Positions 19,910 through 41,779 of a stretch of DNA of 41,779 bases are shown here, in pieces. The stretch's first letter is position 1. Every line of letters begins with the position of its first letter. Location: NCBI GenBank assembly GCA_018221165.1, contig JAAOYD010000033.1:1-41779 (forward strand), written 5' to 3'. The DNA comes from Candidatus Woesearchaeota archaeon. Lineage in GTDB: Archaea; Nanobdellota; Nanobdellia; Woesearchaeales; UBA525. Both the position numbers and the translations under genes were made by a program. The notes beneath the pieces were generated by a model. It did not search any database. It was not told the origin of the DNA and was given only the letters and a program-made list of their open reading frames with translations.

Positions 19910-21475
19910 CTAGAAATCTCCCATGCTTTTCTGACCTTTCCTTTTCCCTGTTTTCACAGCAACTTTCCCCATATCTTGCCCGACTTGCTTCTTCACGTTG
20001 AGGGCAACAGCCTTACCGAGGAGTTGCGAGAGTGAAGTGTAGTCAATCTTCTTCACGTCCTCCAGCGTCTTAATGCGAGCGTTGTACATCTTCCTTGCTC
20101 GCACCCGGCCAATGCCTCGAAGCTTCAGCAACGGCAACAGTTCCGCTTTCGCGCCATGCTTCAACCGCAGCCGCATCTTCGCCAAGGGCGTCCTGAACAT
20201 CTGGTAATTAAGGATGCGCGCTAGTTCCTCGGTAGCGTATACCAACCAGTCTGCACGTTCCAATTTCGACCGTACTTCACCGGGTGCGATGCCGAGTTTC
20301 TCGAGGAGCATGTCCTCACCGACTTCATCCACCCAATCTTGGAAGAACAACGCAGTTTTCAAAGTCATGAGAAACTCGTCGTATTCCTCAGAATACTGCA
20401 CTGGTTCCAACGCGAGCAATTCTGAAGAATAGGGGTTCGTTTGTTCCATAATCTCATCAAGTTCGCGGACGCGTGGACGCAGCAACGGCCGTAGTTCTAA
20501 ACAGCTGCTAATCATATGCAAAATAGCAAAGTCATGCATGCCTTTCTCCGTCGCCCGTTTCAAGCAGGTAATCAAGAAATGAGCAGTATAAGGATCCAAA
20601 TACAGTTCCGCTATGCGTTTCCCGACGAGCGTCGCCTCGAGCTTGCCGTCGCGTACCTCATTCGCTGCAATGAACTCATCAGTGTTGCTCGCGACTTTCA
20701 GGAATTCCCATTCGTCGAGCTTGGCAACCATAGCATCCAAAATACTGTTGAGTTTGTGTGTGTCGCCGTATTGCTTGGCGTAGAAGGTCTTGCTGAAGAA
20801 CTCATAGAGGCCTTCGTGGGTAGTAATGAACTCTGCGGCGATGAGACTCAAAACATACGTCCGTAGTACTGGTTCAACAGCGAGCTTCGAATAAATCTCT
20901 TCTGGTTCACCATTGATGTACATCTCAGTGCGCGCTTCTTTCTGGTCTTTTGTCTCGGCGAGGATAATCGCTTCTCCCCATTTCTCCATGCCAGGACGAC
21001 CAGCTCGGCCAGCCATCTGGTGGTATTCGAGGACAGGAATATCAACCATGCCTCTACCACTGAAGCGTTTCAAGTCTCTAATGATGACGCGGAAGGCAGG
21101 CATGTCGAGGCCCATGGCTAAGGTGGGCGTGCAGCAGATGATCTTGACAATTCCTTTCCTAAAATTCTCTTCTATCAATGCCCGCTGTTTTGAATGCAGT
21201 CCTGCGTGGTGAAAGGCTGTACCTTTCTGCAAACAGCGAGCGAGTCGCTTGCATTGCTTGGTCGGGTTCGGCAGGGTCTTCAAGGCCTTCTCAGCGAGGT
21301 TCAGCAAGTCGGCGCTCTGATTCTTCACTTTCCCAGCTACTCGCTCAGCCTGCGACTCAGCACCACGTTTCGTGCTGCAGAACACCAGGGCTTGCTTGTT
21401 CTTGCCAAGCGTGTCGAGACAGATGTTGATGACCGCGTCGTTACTCGGAGCGTTAATCTCTACTACCTTGCCCAT
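19910..21475 (-). CDS. Hel308/Ski2-like helicase, C-terminal portion only (RecA2, winged-helix, ratchet and HhH domains)
   Basis: Begins at the RecA2 domain (QALVFCSTKRGAE). Motifs HHAGL, TPTLAMGLDMPA and QMAGRAGRPG (motif VI) are present, plus a C-terminal helix-hairpin-helix (LKLRGIGRVRARKMYNA). Walker A, DExH and SAT motifs are absent. Confidence 0.85.
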   Translation of the reverse strand: MGKVVEINAPSNDAVINICLDTLGKNKQALVFCSTKRGAESQAERVAGKVKNQSADLLNLAEKALKTLPNPTKQCKRLARCLQKGTAFHHAGLHSKQRALIEENFRKGIVKIICCTPTLAMGLDMPAFRVIIRDLKRFSGRGMVDIPVLEYHQMAGRAGRPGMEKWGEAIILAETKDQKEARTEMYINGEPEEIYSKLAVEPVLRTYVLSLIAAEFITTHEGLYEFFSKTFYAKQYGDTHKLNSILDAMVAKLDEWEFLKVASNTDEFIAANEVRDGKLEATLVGKRIAELYLDPYTAHFLITCLKRATEKGMHDFAILHMISSCLELRPLLRPRVRELDEIMEQTNPYSSELLALEPVQYSEEYDEFLMTLKTALFFQDWVDEVGEDMLLEKLGIAPGEVRSKLERADWLVYATEELARILNYQMFRTPLAKMRLRLKHGAKAELLPLLKLRGIGRVRARKMYNARIKTLEDVKKIDYTSLSQLLGKAVALNVKKQVGQDMGKVAVKTGKRKGQKSMGDF

Positions 21476-37305: not shown

Positions 37306-38490
37306 ATGAAGAAATTGTTCAGTATTTTGATTATCGCCATGTTCGTGATGAGCATGGTACCACTGGCATTCGCTGAGAACGAGAGCGAAGACGCAGACCC
37401 AAGTGAAGAAGCTCCGCCGATGCCGCCCGAGAGGGATCGCGAGGAGATGCAGAAACGCATCCAAGCGCGAAATGAAGAAATGAAGGAACACGCACAGCAG
37501 TTCCGAGAAAGCGTCAAGGAACGAAATGCGCAGTTCAGAGAGAACGTGAAAGAGCGCAACGAACAGTTCCGAGAAAACGTCAAGGACCGCAACGAACAAT
37601 TCAGAGAGAACGTCAAGGCACACATCGAACAGGCTCGGGAACGTAACGAGATGGCTAAGGAAAAGTACGAGCAGGCTCGTGAACGCTACAAGGAAGCCCA
37701 AGGTAAGGTGAACGAGGCTCGTGAGAAGTGGCAAGACTGTGAAGGTGACGAGAATGAAGCCTGCACAGCAGCACGCGAGAAGATTCGCGGCAACGCCAAG
37801 CCTTTCCTCGGCAACAGCGCCGACATGATTCTCCAGTCTTTAGAGCGAGTGTATGCACAAGTAGCTGGAAACGAGAATATGGATCCTGAGCGCCAGGAAG
37901 AGATTCTTGACGAGCTCGAAGAACAGATGGCTGAAGTTGAAGCTGCTAAGGCTGAAACTGAAGCTCTCGATGACAATAGCACCGACGACGAGATTAGAGA
38001 CGCTGCTGAAGGTGTCAGGAACTCATGGCAACACACCAAGGCGAAGATGAAGCGTGCCGCAGCCCATCACGCCTATGCTAGGCTTGGTAACATCATCGAG
38101 AAGCTTGAACATCTCGGAGAACGCACCGAGAATGCTATCGAAAAGCTCGACGCGAATGGCAAGGATGTGAGCAAAGCAAAAGAACTCCACAGCGAGTATC
38201 TCCGTCTTCTTGCTGAATCCCGTAGCGAATGGGAACTCGCCAAGCAAGTCTGGGAAGAACAGAAGGAAGCTGATGAAGTCGATGCTCAGGACTCAACTGC
38301 CCGTGAGCACTTCCAGAAGGCTCGTGAACTCGCGAAAGAAGCCAGAAGCAAACTTCGTGAAGTCGTGCGGGCCATCAAGGCCGCACACGGCGGCGATCTC
38401 CCTCCAGTGACTGAGGTGGAGCCAGAAGAAGAGGAAGACGACGACAGCGAGACTGGCGGCAACAAAACCGACAGTAACGAGACTGCCTAA
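37306..38490 (+). CDS. Secreted charged coiled-coil protein with 11-aa tandem repeats
   Basis: Signal-like MKKLFSILIIAMFVMSMVPLAFA, then E/K/R-rich heptad-like sequence and an acidic tail. gaggtg lies 9 nt upstream of the ATG. Confidence 0.6.
   Translation: MKKLFSILIIAMFVMSMVPLAFAENESEDADPSEEAPPMPPERDREEMQKRIQARNEEMKEHAQQFRESVKERNAQFRENVKERNEQFRENVKDRNEQFRENVKAHIEQARERNEMAKEKYEQARERYKEAQGKVNEAREKWQDCEGDENEACTAAREKIRGNAKPFLGNSADMILQSLERVYAQVAGNENMDPERQEEILDELEEQMAEVEAAKAETEALDDNSTDDEIRDAAEGVRNSWQHTKAKMKRAAAHHAYARLGNIIEKLEHLGERTENAIEKLDANGKDVSKAKELHSEYLRLLAESRSEWELAKQVWEEQKEADEVDAQDSTAREHFQKARELAKEARSKLREVVRAIKAAHGGDLPPVTEVEPEEEEDDDSETGGNKTDSNETA
37498..37629 (+). repeat. Four tandem 33-nt repeats inside the coiled-coil gene
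   Basis: cagttccgagaaagcgtcaaggaacgaaatgcg and three imperfect copies encode (Q F R E N/S V K E/D R N A/E)x4. Confidence 0.8.
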
Positions 38491-38944: not shown

Positions 38945-39445
38945 TCAATCGTTCACAACCACATACATCATCGTAAAGAATTTCCTCGCATTCTTCACAC
39001 TCTCTTCGGCAGGAAGTTTATTGGCTTGCGACAATTTTCGATACGTGAATTTTCCTCGTTTTCCTTTTTCTTCCTTGAAGATATTGAGTAGTGTTTTTGC
39101 TTTCATTTTGAGGTCATCATATATCGCGAGGAGTTCCTTGTCGAGCACACCTGTCTCGATGAACCAAGAGAAGCGTTCATAGGTCTGCTCGTGTTCTCGT
39201 GGAGCAGTAATCTTGATTCCTTTCGAGAGTAAGTAGGCTTTCGCTGCGTAGAAGATGGAGAAATAGGATGCGCTGATCGCGTTGCTATAGAAGGTTTGCT
39301 GTTCATCTAATTCGAGAGTTCGTTTCATTCCCTCTTCTTCTGAGAGAAGAACAAGTGCATGTGCGAGGAGCGATTCATGCCTCGCCCGCCCAATATACTT
39401 CGCGACGACCCCATCCTCGTCGATAGGCTTTCTTAAGGATTTCAT
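38945..39445 (-). CDS. HEPN-domain protein (partner of the upstream nucleotidyltransferase)
   Basis: Helical ~167 aa from MKSLRKP, with a HEPN-like helix pattern (AISASYFSIFYAAKAYLLSKGI) and pairing with the MNT gene. The start is uncertain: it overlaps the MNT 3' end by 71 nt. The longer ORF-track version is rejected. Confidence 0.6.
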   Translation of the reverse strand: MKSLRKPIDEDGVVAKYIGRARHESLLAHALVLLSEEEGMKRTLELDEQQTFYSNAISASYFSIFYAAKAYLLSKGIKITAPREHEQTYERFSWFIETGVLDKELLAIYDDLKMKAKTLLNIFKEEKGKRGKFTYRKLSQANKLPAEESVKNARKFFTMMYVVVND

Positions 39446-40019
39446 AATACAACGTACAGTTGTAGAGAAGTTTATGTTTCTTTGTGATCTGTTTCCCCAG
39501 ATTTTCCTCTTTATTGACGAGCATTTCGACGAAGTCGGAAAACGTGATGTAATGTTCGTCAATCTGACGAAGATGATGGAGTTTGATGGAATTGAGAGAC
39601 GATGCGATAGCTTTCTCAGTTTCTGGTTTATCGATGAGGAAACAGATATCAATATCCGAATCGGGAGTTTGCGTTCCGTTCGCGAAGCTGCCGAAGAGGA
39701 TAAGTCCAAAGTTCTTCACCGGAACCTCTTTCACAAGCTCTCGAAGAAGACGCTGCACTTCCTTGTGGAGCGGTTCGTTCGCTTCAATATAGAGAAGGTG
39801 TTCAATGAGCTGCGGAGTGTCGAGGTCAAGCGTGTAGAAGTTGCTGTTTGCCTTCCGCTCCTCGATAAGAAAGCTTTTCTTGACGAGCTTCTTCAGGACG
39901 TTGAACACCCAGGGCTTGCTCTTTTTTCCCGAGAGCCTCATCACATCCCTGATGGCGAGCTCTCTGAATGGCTGTGCTTTAAAGGTTGCAAGCACTTGAA
40001 GTTCGTCAGGAGTTAGCAT
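39375..40019 (-). CDS. wHTH-fused minimal nucleotidyltransferase (MNT, Pol-beta superfamily)
   Basis: LILFGSFANGTQTPDSDIDICFLID is the GSxxxGx(n)SDID NTase motif. The N-terminal ~70 aa are winged-helix-like. Confidence 0.8.
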   Translation of the reverse strand: MLTPDELQVLATFKAQPFRELAIRDVMRLSGKKSKPWVFNVLKKLVKKSFLIEERKANSNFYTLDLDTPQLIEHLLYIEANEPLHKEVQRLLRELVKEVPVKNFGLILFGSFANGTQTPDSDIDICFLIDKPETEKAIASSLNSIKLHHLRQIDEHYITFSDFVEMLVNKEENLGKQITKKHKLLYNCTLYYEILKKAYRRGWGRREVYWAGEA

Positions 40020-40104
40020 ATTACTAAATTAGATAATGAACGTTATTAATAAAAGTAACGATTTTGTGACGAGAAAGAGAAGATATTTGTCCCAATGTGC
40101 TGGC

Positions 40105-40191
40105 CTATTCCGACAGACGCGCCGTTGTTGTTGAGGTTGTTGTCGAAGTTGACACCGTTGTTGTTGTCGTTCGCGACACCCAACCGGCCGC
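40105..40191 (-). repeat. DGR template repeat (TR), intergenic and AAC-rich
   Basis: Gap-free 87-nt match to 40453-40539. All 17 mismatches fall at coding-strand adenines of this copy. On the minus strand it reads GCG AAC GAC AAC AAC AAC GGT GTC AAC TTC GAC AAC AAC CTC AAC AAC AAC GGC. Confidence 0.8.
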
Positions 40192-40384
40192 CCAGGTAGC
40201 CCCTCCGCCTTTTTTTCTTTCCACCACCCATTCAGTCATGCGAAGCACGAGTAGTCTGGGTTGAATTTTATGACAGCAAGCTGCCGTAACGGAAGGACGT
40301 GTAGGTCCAGCAGTCCGCATCAATAAGCGGCATAACTGGGACAATGAGAAAAGAAAGTATTGATGTTTAAATGCCTATTGGTGC

Positions 40385-41371
40385 TTATTCGACTCGACGT
40401 TCAAGATTGCTGTCGCGAAGACCTTTAAAAAACGCGTCGAGCGCCTCCGGCGCTACCCCGACAGACGCGCCGTCGTTGCCGAGGCCGCTGACGAAGTAGA
40501 CACCGAGGCTGCTGCCGCCCGCGACACCCAACCGGCCGCTGTCCGGCAACTGGTACCCATCATGCCAAGAACCGTACTGTGTGAAGCCGAACTTCTTGGC
40601 TCGATTCAGCAAAGCGTGAGCGGGCTTGACACCGCCTGTGGCAATACTCAAATCAGGATTAACACGACCATCAACATCTCGCTGAGAAGATTGATCTTCA
40701 GTTTCAGGATTATGATCAATGAGGTGGTATCCTGACGGGCTGTTCTCCAATGCTTCCACAGCAGGACGCACGACAGCATATGCGAGATCGCCATCAAGAA
40801 CGAAACCCTGACTCGCATCCTCAAAATCCCCAACAGAGGTAAAGAAACGATTGCCGAGAACACAGTCACCAACGACACCTTCGTAGAGCAAGCGGTTCAG
40901 AGCATTCCGCTCCTTCCGATTGCTCCTATTAAACTGCAGGGCACCGCGAACAAGCGCGCCATCCTGCACTGCTGCACGAATGCGCTCGTGATCATCAGAG
41001 AAATACGGCGCATTCACGAGGTCAACAACCATGTGAGCATTCCTGACACCATACACGCCTTTTGTGTCTTTCAGGACAAGACGCTCATGGTTCATGTCAT
41101 CCCAACTATTCCATTCAGGGCTCTCTTGCCAGCTCGTGACTTCTTCTGGAACAAGACTTCGCCCATGAAGCAGGAGGAATGAAGCAACACGAGCTAAATC
41201 AGCCTCTTGAACTGCCTGAATGGAATCCGCAACACCCGTAATTCTTTGCCGATACATGCGCACGCCGCGAAGCTGAGCGCCAGTTGGTGGAGTGAAAAAA
41301 GGCCGAATCTTTTCAGGAACGCTCTGTGCGTCCGTTTGCTGTCGATCCAAGAGGAGGTATGTGTCTGCCAT
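40385..41371 (-). CDS. DGR variable (target) protein, with the C-terminal variable region probably in a C-type-lectin-like fold
   Basis: 328-aa ORF. The VR encodes GRLGVAGGSSLGVYFVSGLGNDGASVGVA about 22 aa from the C-terminus. The N-terminal 250 aa are unassigned and I see no signal peptide. Confidence 0.7.
   Translation of the reverse strand: MADTYLLLDRQQTDAQSVPEKIRPFFTPPTGAQLRGVRMYRQRITGVADSIQAVQEADLARVASFLLLHGRSLVPEEVTSWQESPEWNSWDDMNHERLVLKDTKGVYGVRNAHMVVDLVNAPYFSDDHERIRAAVQDGALVRGALQFNRSNRKERNALNRLLYEGVVGDCVLGNRFFTSVGDFEDASQGFVLDGDLAYAVVRPAVEALENSPSGYHLIDHNPETEDQSSQRDVDGRVNPDLSIATGGVKPAHALLNRAKKFGFTQYGSWHDGYQLPDSGRLGVAGGSSLGVYFVSGLGNDGASVGVAPEALDAFFKGLRDSNLERRVE
40440..40454 (-). promoter_or_regulatory. 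GC-rich hairpin at the 3' boundary of VR (candidate DGR target-recognition element)
   Basis: On the coding strand, AGCGCC-GGA-GGCGCT gives a 6-bp stem and 3-nt loop. It can be extended by gtcg/cgac (40436-40462). No equivalent is present next to TR. Confidence 0.5.
40453..40539 (-). repeat. DGR variable repeat (VR) inside CDS 40385-41371
   Basis: Counterpart of TR. It differs only where TR has A on the coding strand (17 of 25 A positions); all 62 non-A positions are identical. Confidence 0.8.
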
Positions 41372-41459: not shown

Positions 41460-41779
41460 TTATCCCTTCACAACCCCAATCGGGGTCAATTTCACAACTT
41501 TCTTCGCGATGCCAGAATCATGGCACACCTGAATAACCTGGTCAACGTCTTTGTAGGCGCCAGGCGCTTCCTCAGTGACGCCTTTCCGGGAAGCGGACTT
41601 GATGCTGATGTCCTTGTCAGCGAGATCTTTGGTGATGCCTTCCTGGTCGAACAGCTTGTTGGCTTTGAAGCGCGACATCAAACGACCAGCGCCGTGAGCG
41701 CAGCTGCCGAAGCTCTCCTTCATCGCTGTTTCTGTTCCATGCAGAATAAAGCTGTGCGTGCCCATGCTGCCAGGAATCA
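41460..41779 (-). CDS. rtcB: RNA ligase RtcB, C-terminal part (partial, continues beyond the window end)
   Basis: IPGSMGTHSFIL and GSCAHGAGR motifs. The frame is open to the window edge. Confidence 0.9.
   Translation of the reverse strand, partial: IPGSMGTHSFILHGTETAMKESFGSCAHGAGRLMSRFKANKLFDQEGITKDLADKDISIKSASRKGVTEEAPGAYKDVDQVIQVCHDSGIAKKVVKLTPIGVVKG

Follow-up and report, generated by a model that had tools for sequence, protein, structure and literature searches.

A probable partial diversity-generating retroelement of the AvpA class and its putative RT-16-containing template RNA gene in an archaeal contig

A contig of 41,779 nucleotides (nt) from a Candidatus Woesearchaeota archaeon (JAAOYD010000033.1) carries two similar segments, one intergenic and one near the 3' end of a long open reading frame (ORF), which differ at adenines of the intergenic copy. 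The locus raises the question of whether these segments are the template repeat (TR) and the variable repeat (VR) of a diversity-generating retroelement (DGR), and how such an element could be diversified when no reverse transcriptase (RT) gene of the DGR type is found on the contig. We analyzed the whole contig, hereafter called the window; coordinates refer to its forward strand and the DGR parts are read on the minus strand. The locus is very probably a partial DGR of the AvpA (nanoarchaeal/Woesearchaeota) class, located in the chromosome of a DPANN-like archaeon, with its RT encoded off the contig. The parts on which this conclusion is based are the following, where IMH stands for initiation of mutagenic homing.

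40105..40191, minus strand: template repeat (TR) of 87 nt that contains, in the frame of the VR, 10 AAC and 2 GAC codons; its 3' end ...GTCGGAATAG is an IMH*-type element.
40453..40539, minus strand: variable repeat (VR), with a mutable part at about 40474..40519 and the invariant 3' end GGCGCGTCTGTCGGGGTAG (40471..40453), an IMH-type element.
40440..40454, minus strand: inverted repeat AGCGCC-GGA-GGCGCT, a hairpin or cruciform with a GRA triloop and a 6-bp stem in the DNA fold, located inside the target gene directly 3' of the VR.
40385..41371, minus strand: target (variable protein) gene, an ORF of 328 amino acids (aa), AvpA-like by a family profile matched against PDB 5IOO.

Repeats, cis elements and target protein

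Realignment of the two segments (40191..40105 against 40539..40453, 87 nt each) is free of gaps and returned the same counts as the preliminary description of this DNA, which had reported 17 mismatches confined to adenines. All 17 fall on TR adenines (13 A>G, 3 A>T and 1 A>C), so that 17 of the 25 TR adenines are changed in the VR and 62 of the 62 non-A positions agree. For 17 mismatches placed at random, the probability of all falling on the 25 A positions is 2.2e-12. The similarity breaks off sharply on either side when the alignment is extended by 30 nt, and a TR pattern with N at every A has only two sites in the window, the TR and the VR themselves, with none expected from shuffled sequences. 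The VR corresponds to codons 278-306 of the target ORF (about 29 codons); both peptides quoted for the copies in the preliminary description, as well as the 328-aa ORF, were found correct from the ORF list and by recomputation. Fifteen of the 17 changes are located at codon positions 1 or 2, and randomization of the TR adenines would give 15^10 x 4^2, about 9e12, protein variants with no stop codon reachable. The locus is a genuine DGR TR/VR pair.

To place this pair among its relatives, we compared nine TR-bearing loci, the window and those designated L004, L010, L040, L043, L045, L046, L050 and L052. The mismatches between TR and VR are all at adenines in L010 (11/11), L040 (9/9), L043 (14/14), L045 (8/8) and L050 (9/9), and nearly all in L004 (12/14), L046 (17/19) and L052 (13/14). 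The types of substitution vary, with 9 A>T, 4 A>G and 1 A>C in L052, 5 A>T, 8 A>G and 1 A>C in L043, and 3 A>T and 6 A>G in L050. The shared geometry of TR and VR in these relatives, their RT, the adjoining RT-16 RNA and the AvpA-like target corroborate the earlier proposal that the repeats result from adenine-mutagenic retrohoming.

The VR of the window ends in ...GTCGGGGTAG (GGGGTAG) whereas the TR ends in ...GTCGGAATAG (GGAATAG), which gives CGGGGTAG versus CGGAATAG for IMH and IMH*; the corresponding elements in L004 are TGGGGTAG and TGGAATAG. The ending GGGGTAG is kept in the VR of 17 of 18 distinct homologous genes, the remaining one being GGAGTAG, and the terminal AA>GG difference between TR and VR recurs in the related loci that have both repeats (one VR has GGAGTAG). 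The terminal difference is thus a fixed IMH*/IMH cis-element difference, as described for nanoarchaeal DGRs (PMC4372165), and not a product of mutagenesis. Since the last two A>G recur in this way, about 15 of 23 template adenines reflect mutagenesis; the preliminary description, which had ascribed all 17 differences to it, holds for these and not for the last two.

The hairpin codes for part of the protein motif VAPEAL, and a 19-nt core, GGgGTAGCGCCgGAGGCgC, is nearly invariant in the 18 distinct genes, four-fold degenerate third positions included. The encoded proteins are only about 35% identical, so that this conservation indicates a constraint at the DNA level, and the core could be used to search for further members of this target family. 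Nanoarchaeal DGRs likewise have IMH TGGGGT versus IMH* TGGAAT and GRA-triloop hairpins within the target gene, according to Paul et al. 2015 (PMC4372165). A scan of viral contigs returned no match to the VR hairpin motif. The motif of the TR end gave 19 matches there, none of them with an AAC-rich TR, and we regard all as chance. These scans therefore give no sign that the class is viral.

The target ORF has no match in Pfam or NCBIfam, an exact-sequence lookup of the protein returned no record, and its protein cluster has a single member. Five homologs were found at 33-41% identity, and their alignment shows a hypervariable stretch that coincides exactly with the VR, flanked by the conserved blocks DSGR and DGxSVGVAPEAL. 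An exhaustive profile search extended the family to 140 cluster representatives. A family profile of 65 sequences matches one solved structure, AvpA (PDB 5IOO), with an E value of 3.9e-27 and an alignment that spans the VR, in which AvpA GRLLFVGDYCNNGLIGNYGIGNYARFVGV faces the VR block of the family (window sequence GRLGVAGGSSLGVYFVSGLGNDGASVGVAPEA). Comparison of the target family with AvpA by hhalign gave a 74% probability and an E value of 2.8e-5 over 193 columns. These profile matches identify the target as a predicted remote homolog of AvpA with the same subclass of C-type-lectin fold.

AvpA is a variable protein of a nanoarchaeal DGR whose C-type-lectin fold is known from PDB 5IOO. Handa et al. 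2016 (PMC5006420) describe its VR as 27 residues long and placed near, not at, the C-terminus; 12 residues vary, 10 of which come from AAY codons, the possible variants number about 1e13, and a Phe at the center of the site does not vary. The window cassette has the same traits, with 12 variable codons (10 AAY), about 1e13 variants and a non-variable Phe mid-site. The preliminary description had considered the 87-nt repeat to be on the short side and the target family to be possibly new. A VR of about 29 codons is normal for the class, as the 27 residues of AvpA (PMC5006420) indicate, and the family is that of AvpA, whose fold was solved in 2016.

The putative template RNA gene and RT-16

The TR of the window is preceded by a match to a structured RNA family, and motifs and predicted folds on both sides of it allow a putative RNA gene to be delimited. 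Its parts, all on the minus strand, are as follows.

40089..40342, minus strand: putative template RNA gene of 254 nt, consisting from 5' to 3' of GUCCCAGU, the RT-16 fold, the TR, AAUAG, a short tail and AUUGGGAC; its ends are set from motifs and folds.
40191..40339, minus strand: match to Rfam RF03019 (RT-16 RNA), 56.9 bits against a gathering score of 50, covering model positions 1-158 of 158.
40365..40372, minus strand: TATA-like box ATTTAAAC, spanning -30..-23 relative to the G that begins the RNA, a possible promoter.
40335..40342, minus strand: 5' strand of the terminal helix, GUCCCAGU, pairing with 40096..40089.
40089..40096, minus strand: 3' strand of the terminal helix, AUUGGGAC, pairing with 40335..40342.

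The putative RNA gene starts 43 nt downstream of the stop codon of the target gene. The RT-16 match ends exactly at the start of the TR, directly 5' of it; in the window its first hairpin includes several non-canonical pairs. Each of the eight other TR-bearing loci likewise has RT-16 immediately 5' to its TR, with 53-79 bits in L004, L040, L043, L045, L046, L050 and L052 and 46.8 bits (gathering score 50) in L010. In all nine loci RT-16, the TR and a short tail form one putative RNA gene of about 250-380 nt. A T/A-rich box, mostly TTTTTATA or TTTTATAT, is found in the same register ahead of the conserved GUCCCAGC in 9/9 loci. On the other side, the TR and GGAAUAG are followed by a short variable hairpin and then by the conserved GCUGGGAC, usually with a T-run after it. 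A weak match to RT-11 in L039 (48 bits against a gathering score of 143.5) was treated as noise.

The two conserved ends are complementary to each other: GUCCCAGC can pair with GCUGGGAC, and eight core pairs form in each of the nine loci. Double changes (C-G>U-A) are present in the window and L046, G-U wobbles in L040, L045, L052 and the window, and a ninth pair (G-C, U-A, U-G or A-U) in five loci. When the partner strand is slid by 1-3 nt, pairing falls from 91% to 22-41%. The minimum free energy folds of six loci all close the RNA by this terminal helix, and RNAalifold applied to the nine sequences returned the same helix together with an 11-bp helix and two hairpins of the RT-16 core. The consensus has 35 pairs, 12 of which show compensatory changes, and leaves the TR largely unpaired.

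Weinberg et al. 2017 (PMC5737381) described RT-1 to RT-19 only by their location near RT genes and connected RT-10 alone with a DGR; we found no role for RT-16 in the literature searched. From the comparison of the nine sequences, RT-16 can be assigned as the probable 5' half of a DGR template RNA with a promoter-like box and an end-to-end helix, a result of modest new content. A wider proposal, which we advance tentatively and hold at slightly below even chance, is that AvpA-type archaeal DGRs have an autonomous template RNA gene with its own TATA-like box, in which 5' GUCCCAGC, RT-16, a single-stranded TR, a tail and 3' GCUGGGAC follow one another and the ends pair, so that the TR would be a loop of a closed RNA; such target-plus-RNA modules would be diversified by an RT encoded elsewhere. 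If this is true, the orphan Rfam family RT-16 would have a function. The assignment of RT-16 also outlines a probable full transcript, from the promoter to the conserved ends and the terminal helix, and an archaeal DGR should thereby be easier to reconstitute in vitro.

The reverse transcriptase and the rival explanations

In six of the nine loci (L004, L043, L045, L046, L050 and L052) an RT gene adjoins RT-16. Apart from L043, where it is split, it encodes a protein of 545-595 aa with RVT_1 and HTH_40 domains and the motifs LGNLTSQ and YVDD, beside the same target family. LGNLTSQ agrees with the I/LGxxxSQ signature of DGR-type RTs. The genes are collinear, with the target first, then the RNA and then the RT, in L004, L043, L045 and L050, whereas L046 and L052 have the RT gene upstream in divergent orientation. 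More than 7000 proteins belong to this RT family, labeled Woesearchaeota or Nanoarchaeota at their source, and the four GTDB genomes with target homologs are all Woesearchaeota; the DGR class is thus common and known. That DGRs had already been described in DPANN archaea was stated in the preliminary description, and the AvpA-type class is indeed documented, with a solved target fold, so that the instance itself adds little.

The adjacent RT is absent in 3/9 TR-bearing loci, the window, L010 and L040. In L010 and L040 the contig breaks off shortly before the target gene starts, and a divergent RT is possible there. The window likewise extends only 408 nt beyond the start of the target gene before it ends inside rtcB. 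The genes on both sides of the cassette are:

41460..41779, minus strand: 3' part of rtcB, truncated where the contig stops and separated by 88 nt from the target gene downstream of it (Pfam RtcB at 2.4e-39, covering positions 323-426 of the 426 in the profile).
39375..40019, minus strand: winged helix-turn-helix (wHTH) plus MntA-like nucleotidyltransferase (NTase) gene, with Pfam NTP_transf_2 and Polbeta; NCBIfam MntA_antitoxin is below its cut-off.
38945..39445, minus strand: HEPN-domain partner of the NTase (Pfam HEPN), 24% identical to the partner in L046 with an E value of 6e-6.

Several results weigh against the locus being an AvpA-class DGR whose template RNA is served by a remote RT. 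A six-frame scan for Y/FxDD in an RT-like context found no RT on the 41,779-nt contig, a tblastn search with the L004 RT had no match in the window, and Pfam scans of 30 ORFs, every large ORF included, returned no RVT domain. Since no DGR-type RT is present on the contig, the locus is classed as a partial, not a complete, DGR cassette: target, VR and template RNA gene without an RT. The preliminary description makes no mention of this absence. The position downstream of the TR where the collinear relatives have their RT is occupied by the NTase/HEPN pair. As for the RNA, the T-rich stretch that follows it in most loci is weak in the window. The support for the terminal helix is mainly its conservation, with double changes in only 3/10 pairs, and 33 of 500 shuffles reach the observed covariation score, the helix being so conserved. 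As for the target, a narrow profile of six sequences has AvpA as its top match at a marginal E value of 0.01, the window protein by itself has no AvpA match in the PDB, and AlphaFold2 with the six-sequence alignment gave a predicted local distance difference test (pLDDT) value of 35 and no usable model, so that the C-type-lectin fold rests on the profile homology to AvpA.

The relatives nevertheless display several separations between the parts. The TR of L043 matches VRs on other contigs (L044, L013, L041 and L042) over 86 nt with 20/20 mismatches at A, and the VR adjoining that TR is offset from it by one codon. This remote match, the divergent RT in L046 and L052, and the promoter-like box of the RNA gene show that parts of AvpA-type DGRs can function when far from each other. 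The module of target and template RNA is found apart from the RT gene in these genomes, with the RT collinear, divergent or absent, and detectors anchored on the RT will miss cassettes like that of the window. No avd or HRDC accessory gene was found among the Pfam-scanned cassette neighbors in the window or the called genes of the related loci; avd is absent in 26% of DGRs (PMC5758913).

Other contigs show further arrangements. The DGR-type RT of L048 (1-7677) has as neighbors an AAA-like ATPase gene and three AvpA-like genes in tandem that contain the conserved hairpin; no RT-16 or TR was found within 6 kb, the converse of the window. The closest homolog on a long contig (L001/L033) has no TR within 10 kb and thus tells nothing about the RNA. 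In L043 (833-2877) the RT is split into two ORFs of 165 and 231 aa, most of the HTH_40 tail is gone, and a transposase-like ORF follows. The contigs of L007, L008 and L009 end 130-330 nt after the target gene, just past the VR hairpin, consistent with assembly breaks at the VR/TR repeat.

By analogy with the known DGR mechanism (Bordetella BPP-1; PMC4372165, PMC5758913), the system would work as follows. The RNA would start about 25 nt past the TATA-like box, fold as RT-16, carry the TR largely unpaired and pair its last 8 nt with its first 8 nt. A DGR RT, encoded beyond rtcB or elsewhere in the genome, would bind this RNA and copy the TR into complementary DNA (cDNA), misincorporating opposite adenines. 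With the IMH-type end and the hairpin as guides, the cDNA would then replace the VR, and the roughly 29 codons of the VR would form the ligand-binding face of the C-type-lectin fold of the AvpA-like target. We infer that an RT encoded off the contig serviced the cassette recently and may still do so.

The main alternative, which we consider unlikely and still worth weighing, is a fossil cassette, in which the RT has been lost or moved and TR and VR are a frozen record of past retrohoming. It would account for the lack of an RT in about 40 kb on one side and for an unrelated NTase/HEPN pair in the usual RT position. RT decay is also seen in the family, in the split and truncated RT of L043, and the same alternative was raised for partial nanoarchaeal DGRs by Paul et al. 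2015 (PMC4372165). However, none of the 62 non-A positions differs, and the RT-16 fold, the terminal helix, IMH* and the hairpin are all intact, so that any loss of the RT would be very recent. Moreover, the contig covers only 408 nt of the upstream side, on which L046 and L052 have a divergent RT gene, and remote pairing of TR and VR exists in the family (L043).

The origins that dispense with retrohoming are far less probable than this. An ordinary duplication or gene conversion, with differences on adenines by chance or composition, would explain that two similar segments exist and nothing more; we regard it as negligible, given P of about 2e-12 for 17/17 mismatches on A, the same one-directional pattern in eight independent homologous loci, the changes on codon positions 1 and 2 of AAC codons, the adjoining RT-associated RNA and the RT in relatives. 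Just as remote is an adenine-specific deamination of one copy, by A-to-I/G editing or a DNA adenine deaminase. It agrees with the predominance of A>G (13/17, or 11/15 without the IMH pair), but the 17 changes include 4 transversions (A>T, A>C), which deamination cannot produce, transversions are many in relatives (for example 9 A>T in L052), and a DGR-type RT is linked to the cassette there. Scarcely more credible is that the intergenic copy is a small protein gene and not a template RNA. A 61-aa ORF (40046..40231) does begin with ATG and spans the TR in frame; nevertheless, the region matches a structured-RNA family, conservation across loci tracks base pairing (12/35 pairs compensatory) and not the ORF, and the conserved ends and the TATA-like box set the start of the transcript 111 nt upstream of the ATG.

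Neighboring genes and comparison with known systems

The ORFs of the window scanned with Pfam are ordinary archaeal chromosomal genes, such as those for a family-B DNA polymerase, RtcB, an archaeal helicase, glycogen synthase, SAM synthetase and a P-type ATPase, among others. The helicase ORF (19910-21475, minus strand) has Helicase_C, HTH_61, archaeal helicase domain 4 and HHH_5, the listed ORF being without the N-terminal DEAD/ATP-binding domain, and L004 has a 585-aa gene similar to it. At 37306-38490 (plus strand) a very acidic low-complexity protein of 394 aa is encoded, without a Pfam match and unrelated to the DGR; it has internal repeats with a period of 33 nt (ERNEQFRENVK...) at 37497-37641.

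wHTH-NTase/HEPN genes of one subfamily lie beside DGR parts in three independent loci: the window (38945-40019, minus strand), L040 (824-1811, minus strand) and L046 (7697-8804, minus strand). Their NTases are 27-37% identical over 140-200 aa. The orientation differs, with the pair on the same strand after the TR in the window, convergent on the TR in L040 and convergent on the RT gene in L046. NTase genes are also found near the target gene in L001 and L007. The MntA/HEPN type of toxin-antitoxin system is abundant in archaea. The adjacency could be due to chance; that this recurrent neighbor is more than a bystander might be the case, at a probability far below that of the autonomous template RNA gene. 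We also considered the NTase as a substitute for the RT and rejected it, as it is a minimal nucleotidyltransferase of the MntA type paired with a HEPN protein and not a templated polymerase.

In L052 (3305-4252) a DDE transposase lies directly downstream of the TR RNA, and in L040 (1890-2399) a tyrosine recombinase comes after the NTase/HEPN pair that follows the TR, which suggests that these cassettes are in rearrangement-prone regions. The DGR cassette of L050 (3015-8952, minus strand) adjoins an rRNA operon whose 23S gene has a LAGLIDADG ORF and a weak group I intron match.

Among known systems, the DUSEL4 Nanoarchaeota DGRs and AvpA (PMC4372165 and PMC5006420) are the closest in several features. 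These are the short VR of about 27-29 codons near, not at, the C-terminus, the 12 variable codons that are mostly AAY and allow about 1e13 variants, the target homologous across the VR, the IMH GGGGT versus TR GGAAT, and the GRA-triloop hairpin within the target's coding sequence. The DUSEL4 DGRs, too, are reported to include partial cassettes that have no RT (PMC4372165). The relationship of the window protein to AvpA is remote and seen with profiles only, and the protein has 328 residues compared with 255 in the crystallized AvpA chain. Term searches of both papers returned no description of a structured RNA 5' of the TR or of a terminal helix.

In DGRs with non-adjacent components (Wu et al. 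2018, PMC5758913) parts act in trans, and targets can be far from RT and TR. The usual remote part in that study is a second target gene, whereas here target and TR are together and the RT is missing. Compared with the Rfam description of RT-16 (RF03019, PMC5737381), window positions 40339..40191 match the full model above the gathering score. Here, however, RT-16 is always (9/9 loci) the 5' part of a longer RNA that runs into the TR of a DGR, and the first nucleotides of this RNA pair with a motif 3' of the TR, outside the Rfam model. The family is known near RT genes, whereas the window has no RT gene nearby.

With the DGR of Bordetella phage BPP-1 (Mtd, bRT, Avd and the TR-Sp RNA) the locus shares the adenine-specific flow from TR to VR, the AAC-rich TR codons, the GC-rich invariant 3' end of the VR, a hairpin after the VR and a C-type-lectin target. 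BPP-1 has Avd, whereas no avd-like gene was seen at the window cassette or among the called genes of the relatives, and the RT of the relatives differs from that of BPP-1 by a C-terminal extension of about 200 aa with HTH_40. The structured spacer of BPP-1 is 3' of the TR, where Rfam RT-10 maps (PMC5737381), whereas the large structured element here, RT-16, is 5' of it. Unlike in BPP-1, the 3' tail is only about 20-45 nt long and pairs with the 5' end of the RNA, and the hairpin lies inside the coding region.

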